This document shows positions 3,893-29,218 of a stretch of 64,000 bases of DNA, piece after piece. The DNA lies in NCBI GenBank assembly GCA_964187785.1, contig OZ076409.1, forward strand, positions 73,844,001 to 73,908,000. Direction: 5' to 3'. The translations under genes and the position numbers were made by a program. This DNA is from Amphiscolops sp. MND2022 (lineage: Eukaryota). How positions within the stretch are numbered: position 1 is the stretch's first letter; every line of letters starts with the position of its first letter. Under the pieces are notes generated by a model. The model searched no databases. It was given only the letters and a program-made list of their open reading frames with translations, and was not told where the DNA came from.

Positions 3893-4783
3893 GTGCCAAA
3901 ACCCAATGGTTTGCCAAAGTTTCGAGGGCGGGGTAGGGCCCCCAGCCCGAGTCAAAAGTCGAAGACTAACAACGTAAGGCCAATACTAAAACCTCCTATC
4001 GATCTTGGAAACGGCCCGTCAGATTTGGCTCAAATTTTGCATGCGGCTTCCCCTAGCGATTCTAAGAACTTTTCCCTACTGCCATTTTGCCCGGAAAATT
4101 TTTTTTGTTGACTTATACACTATTTTAGGTGCCGAAAATGGCGTTTTTTTGGAAAAAATTTTTTTAAGAGCCAATATCTCGTTCCACAGGCCCCGGATCA
4201 AAAAGTGTACAATTGTTCGCACGTTAGGCACTTCATGAACTGTCCGTAGACAAATTTTCGTCCAGATCGGATTAAAATTGACTGAGTAATAGAAAACTTT
4301 GAAAGTGATTTTGACGACATTTTTCGAAAACCTAGTCTATCTCTGCCGTTTTTTGCCCAGATTTTTTTCCAGGACCTCTCCTAAAGACCTCCCCTGGCCG
4401 GTTTACCTCCCAGAAAAACCATTTGGCCCTTTTGCCGCAGTTTCAGCGTTCCAGGATTCCTCGGGTAAAAGATAAATGACTTAGAATTTTTCAAAAAAAA
4501 TTCAAAAAAAAAAATTTTTTTCTTCAAACCTTCCAAAGTCAAGAAACGTCCACAAAACTAGTATTGCAAGTGAATGCATGTGGAAAGTGCTCGAATAGAC
4601 GAGAAAAATGAGCTATTATAAACCTCTGTAGCTCAACCTGACGTTGACTTATGACAATTTGAGTATAGGTAGGTTTTAAATTAGTGGTGTTCCTAACTAA
4701 TTTTTTTCTTTTTTTCCAGGTGTCGGAGATGGCTTTTTCTGCATACAGGTAGTATTTGGTAACAGGTTACGTCCGGTAAGTAT

Positions 4784-5780
4784 CTTATGGGTTGACCAGA
4801 CGCCCCAGTAGGTCTGGCACGCTTTTCGGCACCGCGTTTCCTGAAGCCGCTGAGATAGGTAGGTTGTTTTTTGTAAAAAATCCACTCGAAAAATTTTCCT
4901 TATGGGTTGACCAGACGCCCCAGTAGGTCTGGCACGCTTTTCGGCACCGCGTTTCCTGAAGCCGCTGAGATAGGTAGGTTGTTTTTTGTAAAAATCCACT
5001 CGAAAAATTTTCCTTATGGGTTGACCAGACGCCCCAGTAGGTCTGGCACGCTTTTCGGCACCGCGTTTCCTGAAGCCGCTGAGATAGGTAGGTTGTTTTT
5101 TGTAAAAATCCACTCGAAAAATTTTCCTTATGGGTTGACCAGACGCCCCAGTAGGTCTGGCACGCTTTTCGGCACCGCGTTTCCTGAAGCCGCTGAGATA
5201 GGTAGGTTGTTTTTTGTAAAAAATCCACTCGAAAAATTTTCCTTATGGGTTGACCAGACGCCCCAGTAGGTCTGGCACGCTTTTCGGCACCGCGTTTCCT
5301 GAAGCCGCTGAGATAGGTAGGTTGTTTTTTGTAAAAATCCACTCGAAAAATTTTCCTTATGGGTTGACCAGACGCCCCAGTAGGTCTGGCACGCTTTTCG
5401 GCACCGCGTTTCCTGAAGCCGCTGAGATAGGTAGGTTGTTTTTTGTAAAAATCCACTCGAAAAATTTTCCTTATGGGTTGACCAGACGCCCCAGTAGGTC
5501 TGGCACGCTTTTCGGCACCGCGTTTCCTGAAGCCGCTGAGATAGGTAGGTTGTTTTTTGTAAAAAAATCCACTCGAAAAATTTTCCTTATGGGTTGACCA
5601 GACGCCCCAGTAGGTCTGGCACGCTTTTCGGCACCGCGTTTCCTGAAGCCGCTGAGATAGGTAGGTTGTTTTTTGTAAAAATCCACTCGAAAAATTTTCC
5701 TTATGGGTTGACCAGACGCCCCAGTAGGTCTGGCACGCTTTTCGGCACCGCGTTTCCTGAAGCCGCTGAGATAGGTAAGT
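4784..5780 (+). repeat. 114-116 bp tandem repeat, ~8.7 near-identical copies
   Basis: Unit tatgggttgaccagacgccccagtaggtctggcac...aaattttcct starts at ~4786, 4901, 5015, 5129, 5244, 5358, 5472, 5588 and 5702. Copies differ mainly in A-tract length. Confidence 0.95.
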
Positions 5781-6449
5781 TTAAACTCCTTTAATACTCT
5801 GCGTTCGAATCTGGGTTTCTAAGACTTATTTTTTTGTCCTACGTTTTTTCGGATTAGGTTTCATAGGCTTACTTTCTTAGGTTTTTTAGGATTAGGTTTC
5901 ATAGGCTTACTTTCTTAGGTTTTTTAGGATTAGGTTACTTAGGCTCAGGTGTAGGTTTTAAACTGATATTAAGTTATCATGTACTTTGTTTTTAACAGGG
6001 ACAGCAACAACGAAGAAAAAGAAACTAGTAGAGTGACGCGGTATTTTTTACAGTTGAATAATTTATTATTTATTTTTCATTCATTGAATATTTTAGTTCA
6101 TTGTTTCATCTATTGAAATCTTTATTCCTCTTAATTGAAACCTTTAAATCATAATACTTCATTTTCGACTTCATATTTGTTTTTGGTTTCAAATATATAT
6201 ATTTTTTACTTTTATGAGAAATTTCTGGACTTCTTCGATTGGAAATTTTCTTGTCTTTCTTCGTCAAAAAATACACTTCAATTATTTTTTAATGCAATTT
6301 CTATCTTTTTCTGTTTGAAAAAGTGTTACAGGATTGTCGCAATTCATGATCATACCATTGCGAGCGGAGGTCTACCGATACAAGGGTGGCCAAATGCTCC
6401 GAAATTCTCTGTACTGGTTCAGTTTCTACATTTTTTCAGAGCTCAGAAA

Positions 6450-7013
6450 ATGACTGCAACCACACTATTTGTCAATGGTCTTAAGTTCAAAGCCATTGTT
6501 AAGGAATCCACTAGGAACTCAGTATTGTTATTCGGTGATTCGTTGGTCAAAGAGTTGGATATGCAGGAAATGGACAAAGTTTGCTTGTCTGGAGGCCGGT
6601 GTGCAGACCTAAGAACGATAATACAATCCTCGTATTTTTCAAGATATCGAGTTGTGATCTTAATGTTCGGCGGCAACGATTTGCAAGGACGATTCAAAGG
6701 AAATGTGTTTCGAAAAAGCCTGTCTCCTCAGGAAATAGCCCAGAATCTATTGGAAATTTCTTTCTATCTGTCAAATAGAAACGTTGATGTCTATGTTATG
6801 GGTATACCTTATCGGGGCAATCAGACCTTCCTGAAAATAAAAGAACTGAATTCCCTACTGTTTGCCAGCACAGGAATTTGCTACGAGTTTGTTGGTCTTG
6901 GGGGTCAGCTCTCAAAAGCCTCTGTAATTAGTGGAGACAAAGTTCACCTAAGTGACGAAGGAATTAGCCGTTTGAAATCAATTTTCAAAAACAAAATCCT
7001 CAAATATTTATGA
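6450..7013 (+). CDS. SGNH/GDSL hydrolase-like protein (~187 aa; probable start MTATTLF at 6450)
   Basis: Block I LLFGDS, block II SGG, block III MFGGND, block V GDKVHL (DxxH). The ATG follows a ttttttcag acceptor-like site. The upstream part of the 6135 ORF is AT-rich and probably non-coding. Confidence 0.8.
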   Translation: MTATTLFVNGLKFKAIVKESTRNSVLLFGDSLVKELDMQEMDKVCLSGGRCADLRTIIQSSYFSRYRVVILMFGGNDLQGRFKGNVFRKSLSPQEIAQNLLEISFYLSNRNVDVYVMGIPYRGNQTFLKIKELNSLLFASTGICYEFVGLGGQLSKASVISGDKVHLSDEGISRLKSIFKNKILKYL

Positions 7014-7211
7014 GCAATTACTTTGAAAATGTCAAATTGAACGTTCACGTGATTGATTTTGCTTTTTATTGATTTCTTTTACATGTTTGATTGGATTGCT
7101 TGTTTTAAAAAGCTGTTTGGCCTTGTATGCCTCTTTGCATTTGAGTTTAATTGAACTGTTTCTTTTTTTGTTCTTTTTATTTTTTTTAATCGTTACATCG
7201 TCTTTCATTTT

Positions 7212-7693
7212 CATCACTGATCGACGGAAAGCGTGGTCAGTGATTAGGATTTTTAAACAATTTAAGGTAGAAGTGTCATCACTGATCGAAGAAAAGCGTG
7301 GTCAGTGTTTTGGATTTTTAAACAATTTAAGGTAGAAGTGTCATCACTGATCGACGAAAAGCGTGGTCAGTGTTTTGGATTTTTAAACAATTAAAGGTAG
7401 AAGTGTCATCACTGATCGACGAAAAGCGTGGTCAGTGGTTAGGATTTTTAAACAATTTAAGGTAGAAGTGTCATCACTGATCGACGAAAAGCGTGGTCAG
7501 TGGTTAGGATTTTTAAACAATTTAAGGTAGAAGTGTCATCACTGATCGACGGAAAGCGTGGTCAGTGTTTAGGATTTTTAAACAAATTAAGGTAGAAGTG
7601 TCATCACTGATCGACGAAAAGCGTGGTCAGTGTTTAGGATTTTTAAACAAATTAGGGTAGAAGTGTCATCAGTTGTCGACGTGAAACGTGGTT
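7212..7693 (+). repeat. 65-bp tandem repeat (~7.5 copies), each carrying the ATCGACG-N4-GCGTGGT hairpin
   Basis: Unit catcactgatcgacgaaaagcgtggtcagtg...aaggtagaagtgt at 7212, 7277, 7342, 7407, 7472, 7537, 7602 and a degenerate copy at 7667. Confidence 0.93.
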
Positions 7694-7941
7694 CTACATA
7701 CAGGTAATATTTGGTAGTAGGTAAAACAGGTAATCCTCGGTAAATATGCGGGCAAAGGTGAAAATAAAGTGCAACCGTGTTTCCAGTAGTACGCAATCTT
7801 TGTTATGTGTCAAAAATGGTGACTTTTTCTGATGATGTCTAACAGGATCAGCGTTTTTCCAGATTTGATTTGAATTGCTTTGATCTGCTTTGCCAACATT
7901 AACTTGTTTTGCTTGGCTATCAAAGAGGCTAAAAGTCCCCA

Positions 7942-10900
7942 ATGCCTCGTGGTAGAGGGAGAGGAAGGAGTAGAAGCAACCAGAGAAGATGTACTGTACA
8001 TAACACTTTTCTTGGAAGCGATGGTATGTGTGTAAGGTGCCATGAGCAATCGCAGCAACATGATGAAGCAGGAGGTTCAGCTATGAACGATACGAATTCC
8101 CCTTTCCCCCCAGATGCCCCCAATGATGTAGAGACGACAGGTGTGGAGAGAGTAGACGTAGAGATGTGTGCGAAGTGTGCCAGGATTAGTACTAACAATT
8201 ATCAACTTGACTTCCACCTTGTACAAAAAGACTCGATTCACTCGACTATGTTTGGTAAAAATGTGCATGAAACCCAAGAGGAGACGATCAGAATGTGCCA
8301 ACAGTGTGTAAACTACGACAGAAACACCAGTCGACACAAAGATTGGCCCAACGCGTGGCCCAGCGTATTGTATACTTTACTTTTCGATACTCATAGGTTT
8401 AGTTCAAATGCAGAGAAACTTTACAAAATACTTCCACATGAAATCAAAGACTCCTACAAACAACACATGTATACTGTTCATCCATCAATAGTTAGAACTG
8501 TTAACGAATCTGTTTTGAGGGACATAACAAAGGAAAAAGAAGACTTTTGGACTTTAATAAACAGTCGAACTGCGAAAAACTTAGTCAATGCTCTAACTAA
8601 ACACTGTTTTCCTAACATAAGATGCCCAGCAGGTTGTTTCGAATTCGTCGAGAAATCGCAAGGAATTTCGTTCGCACATTTTCTAAACTGGATTTACCCT
8701 CTCTTCACTAGTTTCAATGCCAACAGTAGAAAATTTTTGAAGGGAGCTCGTGAGGATTTCATGAAACGTATAACTTTGTTGGAAAAATTCAATGTTGCAC
8801 CTTGTATCATGGTTAACGAAAAAGGTTTACAGTTAGCTACTTGTTGTGATCATAAAAACGGTGTCCTACTAAACTACGTACATGTACCAACCAATCCAGT
8901 GGCAGGTAACATCAGCCCAAAATTCGTCGACAGGTTAGCTCCAATGGTATCAAGCGTTCGAACTGTAAGACCCCTCAAAATTGGCTCTAAAAGTGCAACG
9001 TTCACCATGTGTCGGGTTGACAGTGGACGCATAAGTGGTGTCAGTTCCACTGTTCTTCACAAATTCAGAAATTTTGAATGTCCTTTAAATTACTTACGTC
9101 TAAACATGGAGAAACTTCTGATTAATTGTCGTGATGATATTAGGTTAATTATCAGGGTTTGCTGTCAAAATCAAGAAATAACTTCAAATTTTGCTACAGA
9201 GCTACTCGAATTAGATTTACCTACTTCTACGGCCTTAGTTGAAGAACACTGTAAAAATTCTACTGTTTTCAATATGAACACTTTAATGCGGATGAAGGAC
9301 TTTGTAGAAACTTGTACCGATGACATTTTAAGTCGTGACAGCTTTAAAAAACCGTCGATCTATGGACATAAAATGGACGGCTACGGTTTCGAGCCTCCTA
9401 GCTTACCTAAAACTTTTTCACAAGACCGCCGTTTGTTCACCTTCGCTTATTGCCTCTTGTATAACGATTCCATTTGGTCCAAGCTCTGTAGTTGTTCAGG
9501 AGAGTCAGATCAGCTAGTTGAACTTTGTAAACTTTTGAATTGCTTGAGAGGAAACAGAAGCTTACAGTATAATAACACTATCAATTCAGTAATGACTAAT
9601 TTGCGCAGGATCTTAAATGAACTGTTTCCCTCTCAATTAGAACCGTTGACGTCTTTATGTGATTCACTAGAAGGTTGTCAAGTTTTACATTGTCCAAGAG
9701 GATCAGTTGAAAATGTTGTAATTGATTGCTCGCGCAATGATGTGGTGCTAGTTGTTGCGAACGAAGCCCCAGCTAGAGATCGTCAAATTCCCTTCAATTT
9801 AACATCACTCAATGGTAAAGATTTTCAATTAAACTTCATTTCAGCAGACGGTAAGGTAAGTTTGAGACACGGAGATCCGTTCTTCAATTTTTGGACTATA
9901 GTAAACGACGGAAGCCGAGCAGTGAAGGACCCAACTTTAGAATACCAGTACAATAGGATTTGGAAATTTTTAGTCTACGTTTCAAATACCGATTTGAATG
10001 AGGAAACTAAGCTACGGTACTTAAAATACATGGGAGGTCAAGGGGTTTTTTTCTGCCGTGAACATAACCTGCCTTTATCGACGGATTACTTTAAAAGCGG
10101 AAGAAAATGTTGTATGCCTAAAAATTCGACTGATCACCTAATCTGTACTAGAAAATCTGCTTGGCGTTGCCCAAAGAAAGGTTGTGTTGCGTCGGTTTGT
10201 AAAACTCATTTTCGCGAGTTTTGTGACACAAACGATAAGGTTTTGGTCGACAACGCCCAATCAGATGACGCCATCTTGGATAGCAGTGACGATGAGCCAA
10301 CTTTTGAAGAAGCAACACAGCAGCCCGAAGACAACTTGCCAGGGCCCAGCTTCGTGCTGGATGAACAACAAAGAATTGACAATCCAGAAGCCAACATGGA
10401 TGAGTTCGATTGCCCACAATTAATTGTGGATGCAGGGTTCCAAGAAACTGATGCTTTTGCCACGGACGCTGGCTGTGAGCCCGTTTACTTGTCCGAGGAT
10501 TCTAATTTCGTTCCCATGCATGTACTTTTGAATGGTGAATGCCAAGTGCTAAAACGTTTAAAGTATCCAGCTCATATTGGTAAAAAATTTCAGCGTTTCT
10601 TTCAAAATTTCGTTTCAACTCTACCGGGCCGTTCAATACCACTTCTGCAACCGGAGGGATGTTTGTTCCCGAGCATTTTCTATAAACAGTTGGAAGACGG
10701 TTCGTTTGCCGGGGCTCTGCCATTTTTCTTGTACGATGACAAAAATGCTAACTCTAAATTAGATTTCGATGGTTTGCATGAACACATGCGTTTAAGACTT
10801 AAGGACGGTACGCTTTTAACTTCTTCGAATTTGGCCTATATAATGTATGCTTTCGACTGTGTTTTAAATTTGTCACTCGTAAAATGTCACACAAATCAAT

Positions 10901-13900
10901 TTTTCAAACGTGGATTGCAGACTATAACAATTGGTAAGTACAGACCGCAGCAGCTGACATCAACTGAGTCTGTTCTCAAAATGGATAGTGTCGACAGCGA
11001 CGTTCATGTGAATCGTCTCGGAACTGCGTGCGCTAGTGAAACGCCCGACCTTTTTGTAACTTTTACTTGTAACCAGAAGGAACACCCTGGTGTCGCTGAG
11101 ATTGTTCAGGCAATCTACGAACTGTACGGCAGCGCCACCACTGAAGAGCTAAAGGAAGTGCTTCAGGCTTATATGGTTATAATTGTAAGATGTTGGACTA
11201 GGACAATTGAACTTTTAATCGATTACTTGAGGTTTTCAGACGAACGTATCTTAGGTGAGATTCTTAAAGTTTGGGGAAGGGCTGAATTTCAAAGTGCCGC
11301 TGCCAATCTCCAACATTATCACATTCTTTTTTGGTTGAAAAATGTAACCGAGGACATAATAAATAAAATCCAATGCGCTCATAAACACGTGTTTTACGAG
11401 TTCCAAAAACTGTTCAGTGTCAATTTCGGTACGGTCGACAGTGTTGAACACGCAGTTAAGTTGTTCGATGATTGTGTTCGTGTTCAAACACATAGCTGCG
11501 ACAAAGGACATTGCTTGAAAAAGGTTCGATTGGATGGAGAAAGAAAATGTCGTTTTCCCGCGTACCCACAGAGTCATGTTCCCTGGTACAAGGAATTCCA
11601 TCAGCCGCATACACACGAGGCCTTAGAAGTTCTGCAGGAAATTGATTTAGCTGAACCAATGCCTGGTTTTTTTAACACTTTGCAGGTCACTTCTACGCTG
11701 AAAGCAGGTAAGTATATGTATGCGGCTCAAAAAGGCGAGCATATGTCACCGCTCAATGTGGCTCTGTGGAGCATTTGTAAATCAAGTCTCAATGTTCTGA
11801 AAGTGTGTAAGTCTGTCGCATCGAGGTATTTGACATCATATGCCGCCGGTAAAGAAGAACACGCGGACGTTTCCATCAACCCGGATAATGCACACAATGT
11901 TTTAAATGTTCAGGTTAAAAAAATTGAGAACAAAAAGTTAGGTGGTGTTAGAAAAATTCTTGCTCGGGAAGCTAAGCACGATAAAACCCAAGGTATCATA
12001 GATTCAACAACGATTGCGACTACAGAATGTGTGTCATGGATGCTGCAACTTCCTACGGTAATAACAACAATGGATTTTGTTTCGGTCCCAACTGTGGCGC
12101 TTGAAAACCGCGGCGGCGTGCTTTTAAAAAGAAAAAACAACACTCAGTCCAGATCCAACATCCCCGGTGTAGCCAACGAAGGTCCTGCGCAAATCAGACA
12201 ACATCATTTGCAATTTCCCGCGCATAGACTGTTCACAACTGGTCAAAAAATCGTTTTAGAAAGCGTTAATAAAATTCCTTTTACCACCGATAAAGTAACT
12301 GTTTTCTCTTTACGTCCTCCAGAATTGCTGTTCGTGAATAAACTGAAGTTGTATTACAGGTGGTTCATTCGAGAAAAATTGCCCGGTAAAAAAGAAACAA
12401 TTTGTGTTAGGTTTTTGAAAAATGACGTCATAGATTCAACTTGGGTGGATGGTGAAAATTATGCCATTCGACTAAGACCTTGCGCTGTTGGTGAATTTTC
12501 AAACTTTGTTCAGGAATGTTTACTTCAAACTCCAGCGGATGATAAACTCAATGACGCTTGGCGTGTAATAACTCATGTTTTAAATATTGCTAATCACCAA
12601 AACCGTTCGTTTTTTGTTTCCGCTGACCCCAATTTGTCAAACACTCCAGCGGAAGTGGTGTTTTCCAAAGTTTATCCTCGTAGCCCCGCGAACTTTTTGA
12701 TTCACTTTTTGCTTTCAAATGCTTGTTTCGAAACAGAACTCGAACTTTTTGACGTGCCAACACTAAAAGACGCCTATATTAAAGGTAAAATAGTTCCTGA
12801 CAAACAGGTTTTTGACGTTGATGACTGCAATCAACTTTTGAAAAAGTACGTTTTGGAGCAGCTTAGATATTTACCAGGTGGTACCAGGTCTTTTGATGGT
12901 AATGTATTGGCTGCCAAATCTGCTTTTAAAGGTATGTTGATAGATAATGATGTTTACAACGAAGGCTTGCCAATAACAACGATGGACACTCTGACGGAAG
13001 CACTAGAAGACAAGGCCAAGAAAATGCTTCGTCAGTCACAAGTGAACATCATCAAGTCGTTGACTCAGAAAAATTTGCCGAATTTTCCGTCTTCTGTTGA
13101 TTTTGAAACGGTCACGAAAGAAACACCTTCTAATTGGTCCGCTGAATTAATAGCTAATGTTTTTCAATCCGCTGATTCGCTACATGAACAGTCGCTAATT
13201 TTGGAAACCCTAAAAAATTTAATTGTTGGCAGTTTGTTTGCAGGTCACAAGTTCAATAAACATCAGTTGATTTTAGGTCCCCCCGGCACCGGTAAGACTT
13301 ACGTGTTAACAATGGCTTTAGGTTTTGCTTTGTCAAAAGGTTTGTTTTGTCTTGTGACAAGTCTGGCATCCAGAAGATCGATGCACTTTGGCGGCGAACA
13401 CATACATAAACTGTTTTGCTTGCCCCCCTGTTCGAAAGGCTCTCCAATCAAAATGGCTGAGCAGGCATTGACAAAACTTGATCACAGAAACGACAAGAAG
13501 ATGCTCCTCCTGGCGTTGGAAGTGCTGTTCGTGGAAGAGGTTAGCTTGATAAGTGCCGAACAGTGGTCCGCAATGGACATGACACTTCAGGAGTTGAAGC
13601 AGTCAACTTTGCCTTTCGGTGGCGTTCTGGTAATTGCAAGTGGAGATCAGATGCAACTACCCTGCATCGAAGGCAGTGACATCTTCCTTAGTCCCGTTCT
13701 GTTGACAAACTTCGCCTTGTTTTTTCTCGATCATTTCGTTCGGATGACCGACCAAGCAGGTCAAACTGTGCTTCGTCACATGTGGAAGCGTCCGATCAAT
13801 CCTGCCGCTGTCGCTGAGATTCTGGCAATTTTGGATGCCAAATGTACGTTTAAGAACAGTTGGGCGGACCTCGACGATCCGTGTGTCATGCGTGTTTTCG

Positions 13901-15063
13901 GAAAGCGGAAAGCTGAGCAAAGAGAGTTCGATAATCACATTCAGCGAGTACGTGATTCCGGAAACCCGTTTAAGATCTTTGAAGCTACGGACGAAATCTG
14001 TCTTAGTAAAAGCTCTGTTTGGAATGTTACTGAGTCAGCTCAGGTAAGTAACCACTTGAATGATAAGGTAAACGAACCGAAAAGGTTAATAATTTACAAG
14101 AAAGCTATAGTGAGGGTCACTGTGAACTTGGAAAGCGAGCAGTTGTCCCAAGGTCAGGTAGGTGTAGTCCACGAGGTTCCCACCGGTGACTTGGTCACGG
14201 TGTACATCCCTGACACTAGTGGTGGAGACGTTGACATCACTCAGGCGATGCTGGACAACGAGGAGTACCTAAACTGGCGCTCAGTGACTCTCACGAGACA
14301 AACAGGGTTTGTGCAGCCGTTCAGGAAGAACTCGATTCGCAGAGTGCAGATTCCGTTGATGAACAACGTTGCGATGACCACGCACAAACTGATGGGCGAC
14401 ACGTTCGACAAGCTGGCTACGTCAATCTCGGTTACCGACAGCAGCTATAACTTGTGGATGACGTCTCAAGTTTTCGTCATCGTGAGTCGAGTGAAGCAAT
14501 TGAAAAATCTCACGTTCGTCGGAAACAAGTCAGATACGTTGAACGCGATAAGATCAATTTTTGAAGCCAAAGACTTGCGCGAAGAGCGTCTTTTCTCGTT
14601 GTTAGATAAAATCCGGAACAATTCAAGATCTGGTTCCCTTGTTCAGGCCATCGATGTTTCACAGATGTCATATGTTCCTTTTAATAAATCTATTCCGCGA
14701 TCGCCTACTGGTTTTGTGTACCTTTTGACAAGCCTCAACCCAACGTCGCCCGAAACTTTTTACGTAGGCCAAACAGAGCGCGCCTTGTTGACACGTTTGT
14801 CCGAGCATAATAGTGGGAACGGCTCAGAATTTACGAAAGTGCCGCACCGGTTGCCTTGGGCCGTCGCTGCATTTATATGCAATTTTGACTCGAAATTTTC
14901 TCGCCGTGATCTCGAACAAGAACTTCATCGAGAAATGTATGTACGCCGCAATCGTTTGAAAACTCTGAATGACATGATCGCCCTTTTCCAAGAGAAAGTT
15001 TCAAATTTGAACTGCGGCCTTCATTTTTGCGTGTGCGGTGAGTATCGGGCTACTTCAAGTTGA
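7942..15063 (+). CDS. Helitron-type RepHel transposase with Cys-rich N-terminus and C-terminal GIY-YIG endonuclease (2373 aa)
   Basis: Rep motif 1 DLFVTFTCN (~11047), HUH motif RAEFQSAAANLQHYHILFW (~11278-11334) and Y2 motif RYLTSYAAGK (~11824). PIF1-like SF1B motifs GPPGTGKT (~13276), LFVEEVS, PFGGVLVIASGDQMQLP, AMTTHKLMGDT and VFVIVSRV. C-terminal GFVYLL...FYVGQT...RLSEHNSG...E (~14710 onward). Confidence 0.93.
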   Translation: MPRGRGRGRSRSNQRRCTVHNTFLGSDGMCVRCHEQSQQHDEAGGSAMNDTNSPFPPDAPNDVETTGVERVDVEMCAKCARISTNNYQLDFHLVQKDSIHSTMFGKNVHETQEETIRMCQQCVNYDRNTSRHKDWPNAWPSVLYTLLFDTHRFSSNAEKLYKILPHEIKDSYKQHMYTVHPSIVRTVNESVLRDITKEKEDFWTLINSRTAKNLVNALTKHCFPNIRCPAGCFEFVEKSQGISFAHFLNWIYPLFTSFNANSRKFLKGAREDFMKRITLLEKFNVAPCIMVNEKGLQLATCCDHKNGVLLNYVHVPTNPVAGNISPKFVDRLAPMVSSVRTVRPLKIGSKSATFTMCRVDSGRISGVSSTVLHKFRNFECPLNYLRLNMEKLLINCRDDIRLIIRVCCQNQEITSNFATELLELDLPTSTALVEEHCKNSTVFNMNTLMRMKDFVETCTDDILSRDSFKKPSIYGHKMDGYGFEPPSLPKTFSQDRRLFTFAYCLLYNDSIWSKLCSCSGESDQLVELCKLLNCLRGNRSLQYNNTINSVMTNLRRILNELFPSQLEPLTSLCDSLEGCQVLHCPRGSVENVVIDCSRNDVVLVVANEAPARDRQIPFNLTSLNGKDFQLNFISADGKVSLRHGDPFFNFWTIVNDGSRAVKDPTLEYQYNRIWKFLVYVSNTDLNEETKLRYLKYMGGQGVFFCREHNLPLSTDYFKSGRKCCMPKNSTDHLICTRKSAWRCPKKGCVASVCKTHFREFCDTNDKVLVDNAQSDDAILDSSDDEPTFEEATQQPEDNLPGPSFVLDEQQRIDNPEANMDEFDCPQLIVDAGFQETDAFATDAGCEPVYLSEDSNFVPMHVLLNGECQVLKRLKYPAHIGKKFQRFFQNFVSTLPGRSIPLLQPEGCLFPSIFYKQLEDGSFAGALPFFLYDDKNANSKLDFDGLHEHMRLRLKDGTLLTSSNLAYIMYAFDCVLNLSLVKCHTNQFFKRGLQTITIGKYRPQQLTSTESVLKMDSVDSDVHVNRLGTACASETPDLFVTFTCNQKEHPGVAEIVQAIYELYGSATTEELKEVLQAYMVIIVRCWTRTIELLIDYLRFSDERILGEILKVWGRAEFQSAAANLQHYHILFWLKNVTEDIINKIQCAHKHVFYEFQKLFSVNFGTVDSVEHAVKLFDDCVRVQTHSCDKGHCLKKVRLDGERKCRFPAYPQSHVPWYKEFHQPHTHEALEVLQEIDLAEPMPGFFNTLQVTSTLKAGKYMYAAQKGEHMSPLNVALWSICKSSLNVLKVCKSVASRYLTSYAAGKEEHADVSINPDNAHNVLNVQVKKIENKKLGGVRKILAREAKHDKTQGIIDSTTIATTECVSWMLQLPTVITTMDFVSVPTVALENRGGVLLKRKNNTQSRSNIPGVANEGPAQIRQHHLQFPAHRLFTTGQKIVLESVNKIPFTTDKVTVFSLRPPELLFVNKLKLYYRWFIREKLPGKKETICVRFLKNDVIDSTWVDGENYAIRLRPCAVGEFSNFVQECLLQTPADDKLNDAWRVITHVLNIANHQNRSFFVSADPNLSNTPAEVVFSKVYPRSPANFLIHFLLSNACFETELELFDVPTLKDAYIKGKIVPDKQVFDVDDCNQLLKKYVLEQLRYLPGGTRSFDGNVLAAKSAFKGMLIDNDVYNEGLPITTMDTLTEALEDKAKKMLRQSQVNIIKSLTQKNLPNFPSSVDFETVTKETPSNWSAELIANVFQSADSLHEQSLILETLKNLIVGSLFAGHKFNKHQLILGPPGTGKTYVLTMALGFALSKGLFCLVTSLASRRSMHFGGEHIHKLFCLPPCSKGSPIKMAEQALTKLDHRNDKKMLLLALEVLFVEEVSLISAEQWSAMDMTLQELKQSTLPFGGVLVIASGDQMQLPCIEGSDIFLSPVLLTNFALFFLDHFVRMTDQAGQTVLRHMWKRPINPAAVAEILAILDAKCTFKNSWADLDDPCVMRVFGKRKAEQREFDNHIQRVRDSGNPFKIFEATDEICLSKSSVWNVTESAQVSNHLNDKVNEPKRLIIYKKAIVRVTVNLESEQLSQGQVGVVHEVPTGDLVTVYIPDTSGGDVDITQAMLDNEEYLNWRSVTLTRQTGFVQPFRKNSIRRVQIPLMNNVAMTTHKLMGDTFDKLATSISVTDSSYNLWMTSQVFVIVSRVKQLKNLTFVGNKSDTLNAIRSIFEAKDLREERLFSLLDKIRNNSRSGSLVQAIDVSQMSYVPFNKSIPRSPTGFVYLLTSLNPTSPETFYVGQTERALLTRLSEHNSGNGSEFTKVPHRLPWAVAAFICNFDSKFSRRDLEQELHREMYVRRNRLKTLNDMIALFQEKVSNLNCGLHFCVCGEYRATSS

Positions 15064-16681
15064 ACATCGTAAAAGCTAAAAAGTAGGGGAAGCACATAGT
15101 TCTACTCTGATAGTGAAAGTGTGTTGTTCTCCATATTAGGTTTTAAAACAACATGTAATTTCGTTTGAAAATGTAAAAGTAGGCACTGTTGAATATCGCA
15201 CAAAGTTCTACTAAACAGGGTGGACACCGTGCGATACTCTGTTTGTTCACTGTAGGTTAGTTTGCTGGAATCGACGGAGAGCGTGGTTCCAGGTAGGTTT
15301 ATATTAGGTTAGTTAGCTGGAATCGACGATGAGCGTGGTTCCAGGTAGGTTTAAATTAGGTTAGTTTGCTGGAATCGACGATAAGCGTGGTTCCAGTTTT
15401 CTTTATATAAGGTTAGTTTGTTGAGTATCGCACAAAGTTCGACTGCAGAGGGTGGACACCGTGCGATATTCAACAGTTGAATTTGAATGGTGGAATCGAC
15501 GATAAGCGTGGTTCCTGGTTTGATAGTTTTTAAAAGTAACAGGGTAGGATTAAAGAAGAAAATGACAAAGAACGATGTGACAGACCCATGATGACGATCC
15601 AGAAGCAAGACTTACAGTGTATGAGCTTGTGTACACCTTCCAAGCTTATACACAACTTTTTAAAAAAACCAACATCGAAACATATAACCAGTGTAGCAGC
15701 ACGTGTAGACCTTTTGAGTCTTCCACGCTGACACACTCTACGTAAATAAAGATCGTCAAATCCCAAAAACTGAAATATCATACCAAAACCGGACTATCCC
15801 AAAACCGACTTTTCCACTACGACTTTTTGACTAAAACTTAAAGACTGAAACTTAATTGACTGAATTTAATTCTTTTCCTACTCCTACAATTGGTTTTCCC
15901 TGAGTTTAGCTAGAAGGTTGAGTTGAGAGAAGATGAGATAGACCTCAGAGTAGCAGCAACCGCGGTAATTTCCGAATTACAATATTTTTAATAGTTTGGA
16001 CAGGAAAACTTAGATAGAGTAATAGTTTTTCTGGAACCATATATATGGCTATAAACATCTTTTTCAGTCCAGGCGATGTCCTGGCCGGCGAAGCCTTGTG
16101 CCAGGACGGAGCCCTATTAGAGGTTGATCATCAGAAACGATTGTTTTCATTATTTGATGTATCCAGAGATAAAAAAATTTTAGGTATAAGAATTTTCTAT
16201 CTTTTTTAAGATTTCGAATACAAAAAATATCCTCCAATTTGTTTAAACGTCCAAAAATTATTGAAAAACTAATAATTTTTTGTTTAATAATGTCCTTGAG
16301 AGATTGAAGTTTTGTCATAAATGTCTTAAACTGACCACCGTTTTTTACCCGCGGAGCATTTGTTAGATTTCATGTTAGATAGATGGTGACTTAAGAGGAA
16401 GCTTTCAATAATATTTCTTGCACCACAGTTCTATTCAGTAACAAGATTGAGAGATTTCAGAGATATTTATTCATTTAGCAACCCAATTTTTCAACATTCT
16501 CAACATAAGACGCTATCAATGCCTAAATGTAGTCTTTACAAAAATCTTAAGTATTTCTGTAACAAATTTGCATCTTAATCAGTCCCGGCGATGTCCTATG
16601 AAACGCCTTTCTTCAACAGCAGCTACAATTGGGGTTTTAGATTTGTAGTTATTTTTCAGACAAATTGTTCATCCATCAAAA

Positions 16682-17650
16682 ATGCCTGGATATCTTAAAA
16701 CATCACTGTCTCTGCAGCAAGCCCGCGACATTGTCAGAAACAGGTTTACCGACAGCGATACAACCGTGCTGTCCAATGCAACACCCCCTCGTTTCTATAG
16801 TATCAGACTAGTTCTCATTCATATTGCTGCTTCCAGCGGTAAAAAATTATCCTTCGTGAAGACGTCACGAAACGACGCAAGAAAATCGAAGTTCTTAGAG
16901 ATTGAAAAGTACCATAGGTTCTTCTTGTTCGGGTCCCACGCAACTGAAGAAGTATACGCAATGTTCACGGACACAGCCGCAGACACACACAATTTGCTGC
17001 GCTACAATTCAAGTCTTCACCCCGGCGCCACAGTGGACATCCTGAACGCTCAAGTAGAAGGGTTGCTTAAAGCAACCAACACGACTCTCATTTCAACTAT
17101 TGAACCCCTAGTTCCCCTGGAAAATAATGAAATTCGAAACTTGGCGCTTCCACATTCGCTGGAAATGGCGTCCTTCCGATACTTTGAATTTACCACTACT
17201 ACATTAACCATAAGATCAGCCACCGCGACTGAAAATGTGTGTCCCTCATATCTATGTGACGCACAGACAGTGCTTCAGACATGCGGCTGTTCATCTGTAG
17301 CTACTAAAAAAACATGGGCGTTGACTTTAGTTGTACAATGTCAAGAGCTGGAGCCATTGGAGGATGTGGACAATGTCACCGTTACTTCTAATGCTGCCAC
17401 TGACATTTTTGTCACCGCGCAATCAAGAGAATTGTCCCCGAGCTCGACAAATTTCGATCCGTTCGCACTGGATACCGCCATTGTGGATATGTGCTTGGGA
17501 ATAAATGGTAATGGTGGTTTCCTCATCAAAGGCTGGTTCAAGCCAAGTGTATCGGAGGAAGGTGCCACGAAAGACGTGAAGCGGATTCATATTTGTGCGT
17601 TGAAAAATGTTAACGAGCTACCCGAAGATATAAGGGCACTGAAGTATTGA
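16682..17650 (+). CDS. Accessory protein, putative OB-fold plus Zn-ribbon ssDNA-binding (RPA-like) protein, 322 aa
   Basis: Homologous to 30963-32036 (MPG.LK..LS, KYHRF, AMF, PG..V.IL, EPLVP, FRYF.F, VCP..LCD.QT...C.C, GF...GWFKP, H.C.LK). The OB/Zn assignment is inferred from the beta-rich pattern and Cys cluster. Confidence 0.7.
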   Translation: MPGYLKTSLSLQQARDIVRNRFTDSDTTVLSNATPPRFYSIRLVLIHIAASSGKKLSFVKTSRNDARKSKFLEIEKYHRFFLFGSHATEEVYAMFTDTAADTHNLLRYNSSLHPGATVDILNAQVEGLLKATNTTLISTIEPLVPLENNEIRNLALPHSLEMASFRYFEFTTTTLTIRSATATENVCPSYLCDAQTVLQTCGCSSVATKKTWALTLVVQCQELEPLEDVDNVTVTSNAATDIFVTAQSRELSPSSTNFDPFALDTAIVDMCLGINGNGGFLIKGWFKPSVSEEGATKDVKRIHICALKNVNELPEDIRALKY

Positions 17651-18676
17651 AAGCCTCGTGGCCATAGAAGTGACTGGGCCCATTTGTAGTAAAATGAGAG
17701 ATCGACGATAAGCGTGGTCTCTCTTGTTGAAAACTAGTCTCTGATAGAAATGAAAGCAATGATTACAACAAATTTGAGTATGTAATTTAACGTTTCCTTG
17801 GTTTATTCGTGTGCTATTGAATACACGGGATGTCATTTTCGTTCCTGATCAGCAATTATTCATTGCGTTTTTAGTTGCGCTTGTTTATTTTATTATACAA
17901 TTAGTCACCTAATCGGAAAAATGTTATTTCATTATGAATGTTTTTTTGCATCAGTAATTGAGTTTTCCATATACAATCATACTTAATTAGCTCAATATTA
18001 TCGCTTTTGAAAATACTGATATTCAAAATGAACTCCATCGTTTTGGAATTGTTCGGTTTAATTTTTTTGCTAAACTCCAATTAATTCCGAAGAAGGAAGT
18101 GGACAATTTGTTGGGAATCAATTGCTTCTCATCCAACTATTCTCTAACGGTATTTTGTCACAAAAACAATTGCGAAAAAAAACAATAAAGCGCTGTTCTT
18201 AAAATTAAAATCAAAAAGGTGAAATTGACCTAAAATTTGTTGCTCTTTTGGTGGAATCGACGATGAGCGTGGTTCCCGCCTTGTGAAGTACCGGGTAAAG
18301 GTTTTACGGGAAAGCACATTGTTCTACTCGGAAAGTGAACGTGTGTTGTTCTCCACATTAGGTTTTAAAACAACATGTAATTTTGTGTAAACTTGTAAAA
18401 GTAGGCACTGTAGAATATCCACAAAGTTCTACTACACAGGGTGGACACCGTGCGATGTTCTATGTAATTGCGAGGTATGTTGCTCTTTTGGTGGAATCGA
18501 CGATGAGCGTGGTTCCCGCCTCGTAAAATATCATGAAAATGAAATGAACAAACCTGTAAATTCGAGGTATGTTGCCCATATGAGCCATCTGCCTCATCCA
18601 GTGCATCACCGAGTGTTGTCCATGTGAGCCATCCGCATCGTTGCACTGAAATTTGAAACAACCTTCTGGAGAAGAA

Positions 18677-18875
18677 CAGCACATGTGGATGATGACAACA
18701 GCAGTGGTGGATGTGCAGCACAGCAGATGTGGATGATGACAACAACAGTGGTGGATGTGCCGTACAGCAGATGTGGATGATGACAACAACAGTGGTGGAT
18801 GTGCAGTACAGCAGATGTGGATGACGACGACAACAGTGGTGGGTCTGCAGTGCAGCAGATGTGGACGAGGACGAC
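18677..18875 (+). repeat. 44-bp tandem repeat, ~4.5 copies
   Basis: cagcagatgtggatgatgacaacaacagtggtggatgtgcagta-type unit at ~18677, 18721, 18765, 18809 and 18853. Confidence 0.9.
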
Positions 18876-20399
18876 GGTGTTAGAAGGTGAAGTTCTCTTT
18901 TTCCAAACTGAAACTTTAGGGGAAAAGTTTGATTGACTTTATTTAAACACCTAACTTTTCCTGTTTTTGAAATCAAGTATTTTCATGTAACGACAACCCT
19001 TCCGCATTCTCTAACATCATTAACCACTAATTAACCTCCAACCAACACCGACTGAAGACGACGATCATCCAATCACGTAAGTAACTTTTTCTCTTTTTAA
19101 CACTTTCCCGCCTTCTTGACTCTCTCCGTTCAACCGTCCACGTCTAGGTGCCCAAATCCATCGATTTACCTTTACTTTGAGGGCGGGGTAGGGCCCCCGA
19201 CCGGCTCCTCAGGCTTTAGACTGACAACTTAAGGCGCTTTTCAGTTGTAGAGACGATCTCGAAAATGGCCCATACGATTTGGCTCAAATTTTGCATACGG
19301 CTTCCTCTAGCGATTCTAAGAACTAATCCCTACTGGCGTTTTGCCCGGAAAAATCGAAAAGTTGGTCAAAATCACTATTTTAGGTGCCAAAAATGGCGTT
19401 TTTTTGAAAAAAATTTTTTTAAGAGCCAATATCTCGTTCCACAGGCCCCGGATCAAAAAGTGTACAATTGTTTGCACGTTAGGCACTTCATGAACTGTCC
19501 GTAGACAAATTTTCGTCCAGATCGGATAAAAATTGACTGAGTAATAGCCGGAATTCTGACGCATTTTGTCGACATTTTTCGAAAACCTAGTCTATCTCTG
19601 CCGTTTTTTGCCCAGATTTTTTTCCAGGACCTCTCCTAAAGGCCTCCCCTGGCCGGTTTACCTCCCAGAAAAACCATTTGGCCCTTTTGCCGCAGTTTCA
19701 GCGTTCCAGGATTCCTTGAGTAAAGTAAAATGACTTAGAATTTTTTCGAAAAATTTTCAATAAAAATATTTTTTTTTCTTCAGGCCTCCCAAAGTCAAGA
19801 AACGTCCACACAACTAGGATTGCAAGTGAATGCATGTGGAAAGTGCTTGAATAGACGAGAAAAATGAGCTATTATAAAACTTTCTAGCTTAACCTGACGT
19901 TGACTTATGACAATTTTAGTGTGAGCCTGCTATGTGAGAAAAAATTTCAAAAATTGAAAATCGAAGCTAAGTCTCATCCAAAACTCATCGGAATGTTTTA
20001 AATTCATGGTGTTTCTAACTAATTTTTTTTTCCAGGTGTCGGAGTTGACTTTTACTGCATACAGGTAGTATTTGGTAACAGGTTACGTCTGGTAAGTTTG
20101 TGGGTTGAGTAGTAAATGGTGATCATCGATCGACGGAAAGCGTGGTCGGTGATTAGGTGTTCTGCACAAAAGTAGTGGTAAAACAGGTAATCCTCGGTAA
20201 ATATGCCGGCAAAGGTGAAAATGAAGTGCAACCGAGTTTCCAGTTATACGCAATCTTTGTTATGTGTCAAAAAATGGTGACTTTTTCTGATGATGTCTAA
20301 CAGGATCAGCGTTTTTCCAGATTTGATTTGAATTGCTTTGATCTGCTTTGCCAACATTAACTTGTTTTGCTTGGCTATCAAAGAGGCTAAAAGTCCCCA

Positions 20400-23300
20400 A
20401 TGCCTCGTGGTAGAGGGAGAGGAAGGAGTGGCGGTACAGCAAGGAGGAAGTGTGCTGTGCACAATTTGTTTGTTGGAGCAGATGGTGTGTGTGGAAGATG
20501 TGCGTCTCAGGTGGAGCAACAGCAGCAGGTGGAGAGTGATCAAGATGATCAAACAGCCAGTAATGGCAATGTCCCCAATCCCCCAGATGCCCCCAATGGT
20601 GCTGAAAGGTCACAAGTGGAGATGTGTGACAGATGTAGTAGAACTAGCAGCGACTCTTACAGACTTGACTTACACTCTAAACAGAAAGACTCTACTCACA
20701 CTACAATGTTCGGTCGACATATGAATGAAGTTAGCGGAGAAACTGTCAGGATGTGTCAGCAATGCATCGCCTATGACGTCAACCCCAACCGACATAAAGA
20801 TTGGCCCAACGCGTGGCCCAGCGTACTTTATACTTTACTTTTTGAAACTCATAGGTTTAGTTCAAACGCTGAAAAACTGTTTAAAATACTTCCACATGAA
20901 ATTAGGACTTCTTACATGCAACACTTAAACAATGTTTATCCTACTTTTACTTTCAGTAGTCACGATTCGGTTTTCAGGGATATAACTAGGGAAAAAGAAG
21001 ACTTTTGGACTTTAATAAACAGTCGAACTGCGAAAAACTTAATCAATGCTCTTACTAAACACTGTTTTCCTAACATAAGATGCCCAGCTGGATGCTTTGA
21101 ATTTGTCGAAAAGGCTCAAGGAATTTCTTTTGCTCATTTTCTAAACTGGATTTACCCTCTCTTCACTAGTTTCAACGCTGATAGCCGAAAGTTTTTAAAT
21201 GGAATCCGTGATGACTTTACAAAACCTTTAATACTGTTGGAGAAGTTTAAAATTTCACCTTGTCTGGTAAATAATGAAAACGGTTTGCAGTTAGTTACAT
21301 GTAGCGACCACAAAAATGGTGTCAAATTGAAGTATGTTCATGTTCCAACCAACCCAGCAACAGGTAATGTTAGTACACGGTCTGCAGACAGGTTAGCTTT
21401 AATGGTGTCAAGTGTCCGAACGGTAAGACCTTTGAAAATAGGTACTAAAAGTTGTACTTTTACAATGTGTCGCGTTGACAGTGGACGCATCAGCGGTGTG
21501 AGTAGTACTGTTCTCCACAAGTTCCGTAATTTTGAGACTCCCCCTACAGATCGTTTGGTTGAAATCGAAAAACTCATGATTAACTGTAGAAACGATGTCA
21601 AAGATATTATAAGACAATGCTGTGGAAACTTTGAAATAAGTAAGGGTTTAGCCGAGTACTTTCTTGCTGTGGAGTCACCTGTAAGTATTTCTACCATTGA
21701 AGAAAATTGTAAAAGTGCTGTCGTGTTTGACATGGAATCATTGATGAGAATGAAAGACTACGTGGAAAGTTGTCCTGAAGATGTGACCAATCGGGACCTT
21801 GGTTTGGCACCATTGCTTTTAGGACATAAACTCGACGGTTACGGATGTGAGCCTCGGTCTATCGCAAAGACAATTGCCCAGAATTCAGATTTTTTTCCAT
21901 TTGTTTACGTATTCATCAGTCAGGATTTGCTTTTGTCTAAACTATTGAAATTGAGTTCGGGAAATGATCAATTACAACTCCTGTGCAAAACACTCTATAA
22001 ACTTCGAGCAAATTTTTGCACTCGTCACCCATCAAAAATCCAGGTACTATTCCGTAGTTTCCAGGAAGTTTTCACTGCAATTTTTCCAACTGGCTCGATT
22101 CCTTTAAGCAACATAGTAGAGACTTTAGAAAACTGTAGTGTTAAAACATGTCAACGAGGTGAGGTGACAAACGTTAGTATTGACTGTTCGAGGTATGACA
22201 CACTTCTCTTTGTGGCCACAGGTTCCAACACACGTGATTTGCAAGTGCCCTTTGAATTGACTTCAAGTAATGGAACAACTTTTTATTTAACTTTTGTTAG
22301 TTCTGACTCAACTTTAAGTCTCAGGTATGGTCCTCCGTTCTATGGATTCTGGACTGTTAAAAATGACGGAAGTAGACCTGTAAAAGATCCAACTCTAGAG
22401 TACCAGTACAACAGGAACTGGAAATACTTGTTATATGTATCTAAAAGTGACTTGAACGAGGAAACTAAATTACGATACTTGAAATATATGGGAGGACAAG
22501 GTGTCTTTTTTTGTCAAGAACATGTAAAACCGTTATCAACTGATTACTTAAACAGCAATAGAAAATGTAGCATGCCCAAAAATACCGGTGTTTCACAAAT
22601 TTGCACGCGAAAATCTGCTTGGCGGTGTCCGGAAAAAGACTGTTTTGCGTCCGTTTGTAAGACTCATTTCCGAGAATTTTGCGACACGAACGACCGAGTT
22701 AACGTTGATAATGCTCCCTCTACTGATGCCATCCAAGATAGCAGCGATGAAGAAACAGAGTTGCCAATGGACGTCGATGAAGAACCGGATGTCAATCAAC
22801 CTGGACCGAGCTTTGTACTGGATAACCCTCAACGATCCCAAGAAGAACAAGAGGCCAACATGGACGAGTTTGATTGTCCGCAATTGATAGTTGATGCCGG
22901 ATTTCAAGATACGGATGCGTTTGCGACGGACGCTGGCTGTGAGCCCGTTTATCTTTCGAACGACTCTAAATTTGTTCCAATGCATGTACTTTTAAACGGC
23001 GAATGCCAACTGATGAAGCGTTTAAGGTACCCTAAGCATATAGGTAAAAGATTCCAACGCTACTTCCAGAACTTCGTTTCAACTTTGCCTGGCAAGTCGA
23101 TACCTTTGCTTCAACCAGAAGCTTGTTTGTTTCCAAGCATTTTTTATAAACAGCTAGAGGATGGCTCTTTTCCTGGGGCTCTGCCCTTTTTTCTCTACGA
23201 CGATAAAAAAGCAAATTCAAAATTGGACTACGACGGTCTGCATGAACATTTGCGGGTGAGACTTAAAGACGCGACTCTTTTAACTTCAGCTAATTTGTCT

Positions 23301-28545: not shown

Positions 28546-29030
28546 GCGTCCAGATGAAGAAGAAAGAAGAATCGGAAGATGAGAATAATTAATATGTATA
28601 ATAGTAATAATTATAGTAGTTGCGTCCAGATGAAGAAGAAAGAAGATTCGGAAGATGAGAGTAATTGATATTTATAATAGTAATATTTATAGTAGGTGCG
28701 TCCAGATGAAGAAGAAAGAAGATTCGGAAGTAGAGAATAAATAATATTTATAATAGTAATATTTATAGTAGGTGCGTCCAGATGAAGAAGAAAGAAGATT
28801 CGGAAGTAGAGAATAAATAATATTTATAATAGTAATATTTATAGTAGCTGCGTCCAGATGAAGAAGAAAGAAGATTCGGAAGATGAGAGTAATTGATATT
28901 TATAATAGTAATATTTATAGTAGGTGCGTCCAGATGAAGAAGAAAGAAGATTCGGAAGTAGAGAATAAATAATATTTATAATAGTAATATTTATAGTAGG
29001 TGCGTCCAGATGAAGAAGAAAGAAGAAAAG
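28546..29030 (+). repeat. 76-bp tandem repeat, ~6.4 copies
   Basis: gcgtccagatgaagaagaaagaagattcggaag...atagtaggt at 28546, 28622, 28698, 28774, 28850, 28926 and 29002. Confidence 0.93.
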
Positions 29031-29218
29031 AAGACGGTCCAGAACACGGAAAGAAGATTTGGGAAAAGATTATAATAACTCTGACATGTTTTTGTACTTC
29101 ACTTTTTTGAAAGGTTGTAGGTTCAGAATAGGCTGTAGTGATTAGGTTGTATAAATTTCATTGTTCGGCATGATATGCAAATCACTGGGAGCCCTAACCG
29201 ATAGTCCTCGTTTTGTAG

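Follow-up and report, generated by a model that had tools for sequence, protein, structure and literature searches.

What part does a GIY-YIG nuclease play at the C-terminal end of a Helitron-type transposase? Helitron-like elements (HLEs) are presently sorted into HLE1 and HLE2, and to our knowledge the apurinic/apyrimidinic (AP) endonuclease of Helentrons is the sole extra nuclease that has been recognized in them. The question is raised by a 64,000-nt stretch of the genome of Amphiscolops sp. MND2022 (assembly GCA_964187785.1, contig OZ076409.1, positions 73,844,001 to 73,908,000 of the forward strand; referred to here as the window), which holds two autonomous elements in head-to-tail order, each with one large open reading frame (ORF1 in element 1 and ORF2 in element 2). 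Both reading frames are open and free of introns, their products are 81% identical to each other, and in each a putative Rep and helicase (together RepHel) are joined in frame to a terminal GIY-YIG domain. Sequence comparison within the genome and across protein databases indicates that this fusion is no one-off capture but marks an ancient and selected lineage, and the elements that carry it were found to insert precisely, and in one orientation, at their own junctions.

The nuclease was examined by family models, profile comparison, and fold prediction. A sequence-only reading of the window had placed domains with a GIY-YIG signature at 14700-15063 and ~27170-27527, had described the two copies as nearly identical, and had judged their pattern closest to nucleases of the SLX1/UPF0213 type. 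The ORF map and the Pfam positions bear out both locations, the motifs GFVYLLTS, FYVGQTER, RLSEHN.G.GS.FTK, PW, and E are present in both translations, and the final 190 residues of the two ORFs are 92% identical. When scanned with the Pfam GIY-YIG model (PF01541, curated cut-off 22.6 bits), ORF1 was matched over residues 2257-2328 (nt 14710-14925) at 25.2 bits in the context of the whole protein and at 30.1 bits (E 6e-7) when the last 157 aa were isolated; the match in ORF2 is listed in the table below. The C-terminal 190 residues of ORF1, ORF2, and eleven diverged paralogues were then aligned, and in these 13 sequences Y2260, Y2274, G2276, H2289, N2290, a Thr, a Pro-Trp pair, and E2325 (ORF1 numbering) were found to be invariant, with R2285 kept in most. 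The Tyr of GIY, the Tyr of YIG, the Arg of helix 1, and the Glu are presumably catalytic, as we take from the literature on UvrC, I-TevI, and Slx1. Among solved chains, the profile built from this alignment had its best matches in SLX1 (4xlg_A, E 2.3e-11; 7cq2_A, 6.3e-11; then 7cq4, 7wme, and 6seh; all SLX1 matches within 2.3e-11 to 5e-9), followed by UPF0213 proteins (1ywl, 4.9e-8; 1zg2, 3.8e-4), with UvrC reaching no better than E 0.83. The AlphaFold model computed from the same alignment has a predicted local distance difference test score (pLDDT) of ~90 over residues 70-180 and a beta-beta-alpha-beta-alpha core (strands 75-81, 90-95, and 123-130; helices 99-107 and 135-151). When this model was compared with the PDB by Foldseek, ranks 1 to 11 were all occupied by Slx1 or At-HIGLE (E 2.3e-5 to 2.5e-3, probability 1.00), and UvrC and I-TevI appeared near E 1-2 only. 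Thus, the GIY-YIG fold is confirmed by three approaches, and its proposed SLX1/UPF0213 character is upheld by the profile matches as well as by the fold ranking. The domain is followed by a tail of only ~45 residues, and Pfam detected no RING or PHD finger at E ≤ 0.1, so the nuclease is SLX1-like and not an orthologue of SLX1. An NCBIfam scan of the C-terminal domain returned either nothing or a weak group I intron endonuclease match (25.8 bits, cut-off 56).

The remainder of the two ORFs is, by its motifs, that of a Helitron-type RepHel, with a predicted HUH Rep bearing paired Tyr residues upstream of a Pif1-like helicase. Pfam matched ORF1 and ORF2 with only the second half of the Helitron_like_N model (residues 1032-1129, 38 bits; 38-40 bits over model positions 108-190) and with PIF1 (44 bits, residues 1776-1909). 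In an alignment of the Rep region of 12 family sequences, the HxH motif (H1125/H1127, nt 11314-11322), the paired Tyr (Y1296/Y1300, YxxxY, nt 11827-11841), and an AG.EE motif that follows were all invariant, and Helitron_like_N was matched in 11 of the 12. The helicase part matched solved Pif1 helicases (5ftb, E 7.7e-11) and Helraiser (7lcc, E 1.1e-5); no match to the Rep profile was found in the PDB at E ≤ 1. The Cys-rich N-terminal region of ~850 residues is conserved among families and has no Pfam match. The DUF6570 model, which finds 42 places elsewhere in the genome, had no match in the 12 family members at E ≤ 1. The sequence-only reading had further noted that the C-terminal nuclease typical of Helentrons is an AP endonuclease, and in these elements it is replaced: no Exo_endo_phos domain was found by Pfam in the 12 full-length ORFs or in the accessory ORFs. 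When longer proteins were searched with the Rep profile, all 50 matches belonged to the same family and none carried Exo_endo_phos or DUF6570. OTU (PF02338) was present in several of the database relatives of the family.

We next consider how widely the fusion is distributed and whether it is maintained. A six-frame search of the genome with the last 157 aa gave 267 candidates, of which 150 were scored; these ranged from 100% down to 28% identity, and 33 of them lie in open frames of 2231-2853 codons. Ten diverged loci were picked from these matches (C-termini 28-74% identical), and each proved to encode, in a single ORF 2332-2820 aa long, both PIF1 and a GIY-YIG domain at the end; the latter exceeded the Pfam cut-off in nine, the tenth being L032 (20.5 bits), the distant-family locus whose ORF begins at the end of the window and is ~33% identical in the Rep region. 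Helitron_like_N was matched at E ≤ 0.01 in six of the ten, and one locus (L029) had a weak N-terminal OTU match (21.5 bits, cut-off 23.3). Between ORF1 and ORF2, nonsynonymous divergence (dN) in the nuclease domain was 0.019 and synonymous divergence (dS) 0.225, giving a dN/dS of 0.08, close to the 0.094 of the helicase. The nuclease profile was also run over 1.84 billion cluster representatives; it matched 4692 of them at E ≤ 1e-3, and limits of 1e-10 and 1e-30 left 652 and 70, respectively. Many of the 652 have lengths of 2000-2800 aa. Among the best 150 of the 4692, (i) 26 are proteins of 1300-2834 aa with the nuclease at the C-terminal end; (ii) 130 also match the helicase-end segment that opens the profile; and (iii) the key residues are kept in 149 (Y), 144 (Y), 149 (G), 138 (R), 145 (H), 144 (N), and 140 (E) cases, counts that are partly circular because the representatives were chosen by their likeness to the profile. 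When 19 long representatives were scanned at E ≤ 0.001, 18 had GIY-YIG, 15 PIF1, and 7 Helitron_like_N, and one carried an Ulp1 protease downstream of the nuclease. The sole organism-naming entry among the matches listed was XP_039257388.1 of Styela clava, and several representatives had been labelled "predicted GIY-YIG superfamily endonuclease" by the Joint Genome Institute (JGI). The nearest ESM Atlas cluster, which we treat as a lead only, has 66 members (GIY-YIG in 98%, PIF1 in 85%) that are mostly eukaryotic, diatoms being the commonest; a word-based homologue search with the C-terminal region returned only 12 close relatives. A recent capture of a host SLX1 gene was considered and rejected, since the fusion is common to families less than 35% identical and to other organisms.

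The insertion behavior of the elements was read from their boundaries and from copies on other chromosomes. The sequence CACGTCTAGGTGCC is present at every boundary, with 8 matches at ≤2 mismatches in the window against 0.12 expected, and all 17 occurrences of the shorter CTAGGTGSY are on the + strand, with none on the - strand (0.76 expected). A copy of element 1 on C2 matches window positions 5586-19152 at 99.993% over 13,567 bp and 3889-4980 at 99.6%; its homology stops exactly at the junction words, its flanks differ from those in the window, and when these flanks are joined they reproduce a junction that is found uninterrupted 15 kb away and twice on C10. For element 1 itself, each limit could fall anywhere in the 9-nt junction word CTAGGTGCC (3889-3897 and 19144-19152), and an approximate reading of the unit order places element 1 at about 3889-19143 and element 2 at about 19144-32629. 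A copy of element 2 on C10 matches window positions 19144-30973 at 98.5%, has an identical 3′ end, and sits exactly at a unit junction. The uninterrupted paralogous junction for the C10 copy reads CTCG|GTGCC, and the filled site has CTCG on the left and CTAG on the right; CTNG is therefore the 3′ end of the upstream unit, and the units run GTGSY...CTAG, a register that rests on this one informative case and on a base that co-varies with the upstream family in two of two cases. Insertion is thus precise and oriented, falls between CTNG and GTG, and leaves no detectable target duplication, and the movement of these elements is recent.

The same junctions extend far beyond the window. Two 50-kb regions, on C2 and C10, are built in the same way and contain 15 and 25 junction words, respectively, on a single strand in each region and with many unit families between them. 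When 10-kb samples were taken from 73.0-76.4 Mb of C1, the contig of the window, the junction word was detected in eight of nine, and its 44 occurrences all lie on the + strand, most of them ~1.28 kb apart; samples of the same size outside this block or on other contigs had it in none of nine. Likewise, all 18 GIY-YIG matches at C1 73.48-76.46 Mb are on the + strand. The array context from which the sequence-only reading had suggested site-specific growth is real, and insertion is specific to the junction as judged in the window, on C2, and on C10. C1 ~73.0-76.4 Mb (L057-L065), within which the window lies, forms a block of ~3.4 Mb that is apparently one array of uniformly oriented ~1.28-kb units, and it could be a pericentromeric satellite that was built from, or colonized by, RepHel-GIY-YIG elements. 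Elsewhere, GIY-YIG matches switch strand once within each of two clusters, with six on the - strand followed by six on the + strand at C2 102.39-103.88 Mb and three on the - strand followed by six on the + strand at C3 2.43-3.91 Mb; each looks as if two arrays diverge from one point.

How might the nuclease contribute? We propose that an SLX1-type domain fused to RepHel makes the integration cut that is beyond the reach of a single-strand-specific Rep, and we give this proposal, which takes up the suggestion of the sequence-only reading that the domain could nick the target junction or resolve branched intermediates, an even chance. According to this model, Rep would nick a single strand at CTAG|GTG, in the donor as well as in the target; each resident junction would then be a target, which would explain why the arrays are mixed in family and uniform in orientation. 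The helicase would unwind the DNA after the nick, and the GIY-YIG domain, borne at the C-terminal end of the helicase, would nick the complementary strand or cut the flap or branched joint that arises from strand transfer. Such a cut could provide a host polymerase with a primer and seal the insertion, a task that the AP endonuclease of Helentrons is likewise presumed to perform. The nearest solved relatives, Slx1 and HIGLE, are structure-specific by the titles of their PDB entries, consistent with the cutting of a flap or joint. A shared donor and target site would lead to oriented, site-specific insertion by adeno-associated virus (AAV) Rep at AAVS1 and by the HUH enzymes of IS91 and IS200-IS605, which serve here as an analogy only; these systems are not known to have a dedicated second nuclease.

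Several points weigh against this model. The role of the nuclease in transposition, including its substrate, is one that we infer, and junction specificity could derive entirely from Rep. An extra nuclease is absent from canonical Helitrons (Helraiser) and from the DUF6570-type HLE2 found alongside the present elements, and so is not obligatory for rolling-circle transposition. SLX1 depends on SLX4 and on a RING domain; no RING was detected here, and no SLX4 was seen, though no search aimed at it was made. For the ten diverged families, the 10-kb loci had no junction word close to their ORFs. Furthermore, head-to-tail Helitron arrays are known for elements that lack GIY-YIG, as described for Helitron-1_DPe in the accessible part of 10.1101/2021.06.02.446622.

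Three other accounts of the nuclease were weighed against the same evidence. It is unlikely, in our judgment, that the GIY-YIG domain and not Rep picks the target, with a homing-type nickase acting at CTAG|GTG and Rep-bound element DNA being joined at the nick. The strict junction specificity and orientation of insertion would agree with such a division of labor, as would the Cys-rich N-terminal region, which is conserved across families and could supply DNA recognition; moreover, mobile elements that carry a GIY-YIG enzyme typically use it to nick the target, as with I-TevI. The role of the GIY-YIG endonuclease in Penelope-like elements, as given in the available portion of PMC6431247, counts in the same direction. 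However, the domain belongs with the SLX1/UPF0213 nucleases, and its solved relatives recognize DNA structure and not sequence; it matches I-TevI and UvrC no more than marginally; and the junction word consists of the element's own ends, as expected of recognition by an HUH Rep. Improbable to a slightly greater degree is a nuclease that serves replication, its task being to process concatemers and branched products of rolling-circle synthesis, by resolution or trimming, or to restart forks that stall on the arrays, while the arrays would grow mainly by rolling-circle read-through and unequal exchange and not by insertion. SLX1-type enzymes do cut flaps, forks, and junctions (titles of 6sei and 7cq4), the uniform orientation of the ~1.28-kb units over the ~3.4-Mb C1 block is typical of satellite amplification, and the mosaic divergence of the two ORFs (dS 0.06 to >2; described below) points to recombination. 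Nonetheless, different unit families are interleaved in the arrays, and the two autonomous elements have near-identical copies at precise junctions on other chromosomes, so that insertion is needed and local amplification alone does not suffice.

A captured passenger that takes no part in the mobility of the element is the account to which we give very little credence. It would be in keeping with two statements in the text of PMC11417382, namely that the GIY-YIG domain of HelenSM92 is captured and that fragments of host genes are often captured by Helitrons, and with a free-standing 315-aa GIY-YIG ORF of this genome, which follows a broken HLE2 at a distance of ~5 kb. Against it stand the fixed position of the domain, C-terminal to the helicase in families only 28-35% identical; its dN/dS of 0.08, with catalytic residues kept in 138-149 of the best 150 representatives; and the occurrence of the same layout in other organisms.

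Table. Features of the 64,000-nt window (positions in the window; domain assignments are predictions)
Feature	Positions	Strand	Basis
Three short non-coding units, ~1.27-1.28 kb, head-to-tail, with 5′ part and 3′ end as in elements 1 and 2	67..3892	+	Self-BLAST
Autonomous element 1, 15.26 kb, GTGCC...CTAG	3893..19147	+	C2 copy, junction words
ORF1, 2373 aa: Cys-rich N-terminal region, Rep, Pif1-like helicase, GIY-YIG	7942..15063	+	
Rep (HUH) region of ORF1	10459..12141	+	Helitron_like_N match, HxH, paired Tyr
Pif1-like superfamily 1 (SF1) helicase of ORF1, Walker A GPPGTGKT at aa 1779-1786	13192..14526	+	Pfam PIF1
SLX1-type GIY-YIG nuclease domain of ORF1, aa 2254-2364	14701..15033	+	Pfam, profile, fold
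Autonomous element 2, 13.49 kb, adjoining element 1 head-to-tail	19148..32633	+	C10 copy, junction motifs
ORF2, 2375 aa, layout as ORF1	20400..27527	+	
GIY-YIG core (Pfam stretch) of ORF2, residues 2259-2330	27174..27389	+	PF01541, 24.0 bits
Two more short units, same family as the upstream three	32634..35198	+	Self-BLAST, junction motifs
Continuation of the array: short units of other families, 1.07-2.4 kb, GTGG(T/C) after CTAG	35199..54123	+	
Third RepHel-GIY-YIG ORF (L032), 2376 aa, start only, runs off the window	63079..64000	+	

The short units that accompany the autonomous elements were found to have about the first 800 bp and the 3′ end in common with them, and the upstream three are bounded by junction motifs at 63, 1344, 2623, and 3889. 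A short unit searched for terminal inverted repeats yielded none that were convincing. A 3′ hairpin in elements 1 and 2 was not significant (z +1.5 and +0.7), and their short partner unit was no better than shuffled sequence. Some array families do have a GC-rich hairpin 11-15 nt before the 3′ end (z ~ -3.1), and strong 3′ hairpins are present in some short units of the 35199..54123 stretch. At unit ends 36179-36268, 41654-41743, 44203-44292, and similar positions the hairpin takes the form GGGCATGCC-GAGG-CATGCCC, and in some of these non-partner families it is accompanied by another GC hairpin, which lies ~14 nt upstream of CTAG (z ~ -3.1).

Divergence between ORF1 and ORF2 is mosaic, with dS of ~0.06-0.56 in the 3′ half, whereas the N-terminal and Rep parts give values that exceed 2 or are saturated. 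A copy at C1:73.72 Mb is, in its 5′ part, 87% identical to element 2, compared with 79% for element 1 to element 2. Both the mosaic and the greater similarity of this copy to element 2 suggest recombination between families.

Each element also holds accessory content. Five ORFs of 203-377 aa lie inside the elements, at 6135-7013, 16682-17650, 29219-29878, and 30903-32036 on the + strand and at 18365-18976 on the - strand; none of them matches a Pfam family above its cut-off, those of one element do not resemble those of the other, and across the stretch with 30903-32036 the C10 and window copies of element 2 are not alike. These ORFs look like variable cargo. Tandem repeats were detected at 4784-5781, 7211-7692, 15253-15420, 27717-27858, and 28546-29026, with units of 114 bp (8.7 copies), 65 bp (7.4 copies), and 76 bp (6.3 copies); a 52-bp unit in ~3 copies stands directly after the stop codon of each ORF, and the copy number of the 114-bp array differs between the window and the C2 copy. 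Further afield, (i) L036 (C2:102433000-102442999) encodes GIY-YIG in a 169-aa ORF of its own, immediately downstream of a 1500-aa ORF for Rep and helicase, and is probably a frameshifted copy; (ii) several identical open frames of ~203 aa recur on C2; and (iii) ORFs downstream of distant-family RepHel at L032 (8775-9856) and L037 (3265-4257) have a common "IGWFKP" motif and no Pfam match, possibly representing a conserved accessory protein of distant families.

The lineage is of interest as a widespread and selected swap to an SLX1-type nuclease whose layout is conserved and has barely been described. Standard Helitron annotation relies on Helitron_like_N and on the end signatures of HLE1 and HLE2; these elements are likely to be missed by it because their Pfam match is weak and partial and their ends differ. 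With dozens of intact copies, interchromosomal copies that are 99.99% identical, and an insertion site that can be read directly, they offer a tractable system in which the role of a second nuclease can be addressed, and they illustrate one route by which transposons may seed and populate long oriented satellite blocks. We tentatively suggest, while thinking it somewhat more likely wrong than right, that the SLX1-type nuclease defines a third deep lineage among the rolling-circle transposons of eukaryotes, to which these elements would belong, and that its members integrate site-specifically at their own CTAG|GTG junctions and thereby build and colonize megabase-long oriented satellite blocks, possibly pericentromeric ones. 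If true, this would bear on the transposon-driven origin of satellite DNA and would place a repair-type, structure-specific nuclease in an integration machinery.

The elements were finally compared with known systems, beginning with the other HLEs of the same genome. DUF6570-type HLE2 occupies 42 places, with ORFs of 1949-2283 aa that carry PIF1 and OTU or JAB and match Helitron_like_N in full length at 63-76 bits; an HLE1-like family matches Helitron_like_N at 199 bits and PIF1 at 238 bits. Neither GIY-YIG nor AP endonuclease was found in the HLE2 and HLE1-like ORFs of the genome that were scanned. A hidden Markov model (HMM) of the GIY-YIG lineage matched HLE2 and HLE1 references at 39-85 bits, nearly all of it in the helicase. 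When Rep regions were compared by hhalign, with in-genome stand-ins for HLE2 and HLE1 as the references and not named Repbase families, the GIY-YIG family matched HLE2 at a probability of 96.2% (E 2.5e-9, score 80, 337 columns) and HLE1 at 90.5% (E 1.4e-6, score 57), and HLE2 matched HLE1 at 96.1% (E 3.6e-9, score 77). The comparison leans toward a Rep that is closer to HLE2, at a distance about equal to that between HLE2 and HLE1.

In the full-text literature, with subscription papers and Repbase reports outside its scope, no description of an in-frame RepHel-GIY-YIG fusion was found. The only printed link between a Helitron-like element and GIY-YIG that we found is made in passing in the accessible text of PMC11417382 (HELIANO), which reports a "captured" GIY-YIG domain in HelenSM92, an HLE2 family of Sphagnum magellanicum with elements of 16-18 kb; GIY-YIG is not among the recurrent HLE domains listed there. 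HelenSM92, as far as its text and legend describe it, has short terminal inverted repeats and TT/TT sites, unlike the elements here. In this genome, C3:19972500-19989499 (L049, L050) has a free-standing 315-aa ORF with an SLX1-like GIY-YIG match of 41 bits on the same strand as, and ~5 kb downstream of, a fragmented DUF6570-type HLE2, possibly a case like that of the moss.

The nuclease itself has the pattern Y..S, FY.G.T, RL..HN.G, T, PW, and E in common with SLX1, HIGLE, and UPF0213 (YhbQ-type) proteins; here, however, it is the tail of a 2373-aa transposase and not a repair protein, and it is followed by no detected RING or PHD finger. Helentrons are defined by a C-terminal AP endonuclease, and DUF6570 is a marker of HLE2, according to the text available for PMC11417382. 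With Helentrons the present elements have in common a giant single ORF that runs from Rep through a Pif1-like helicase to a C-terminal nuclease, short non-autonomous units, tandem repeats, and, in some members, an N-terminal OTU protease. They differ in that the Helentron nuclease is Exo_endo_phos and theirs is of the SLX1-type GIY-YIG class, and in that they lack DUF6570, showed no terminal inverted repeats in the short unit searched, and insert at CTAG|GTG instead of between T and T. Canonical Helitrons (HLE1; Helraiser, 7lcc) resemble them in a two-Tyr HUH Rep, a Pif1-like helicase, and the lack of a target duplication, and the 3′ CTRR of HLE1 fits the CTAG found here; some array families also have a GC-rich 3′ hairpin. 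Nonetheless, HLE1 has 5′ TC and an A|T target, whereas the present elements have 5′ GTG and target an element junction; the Rep regions of the two are barely alignable, and the present elements carry, in addition, the ~850-aa N-terminal region and the nuclease.

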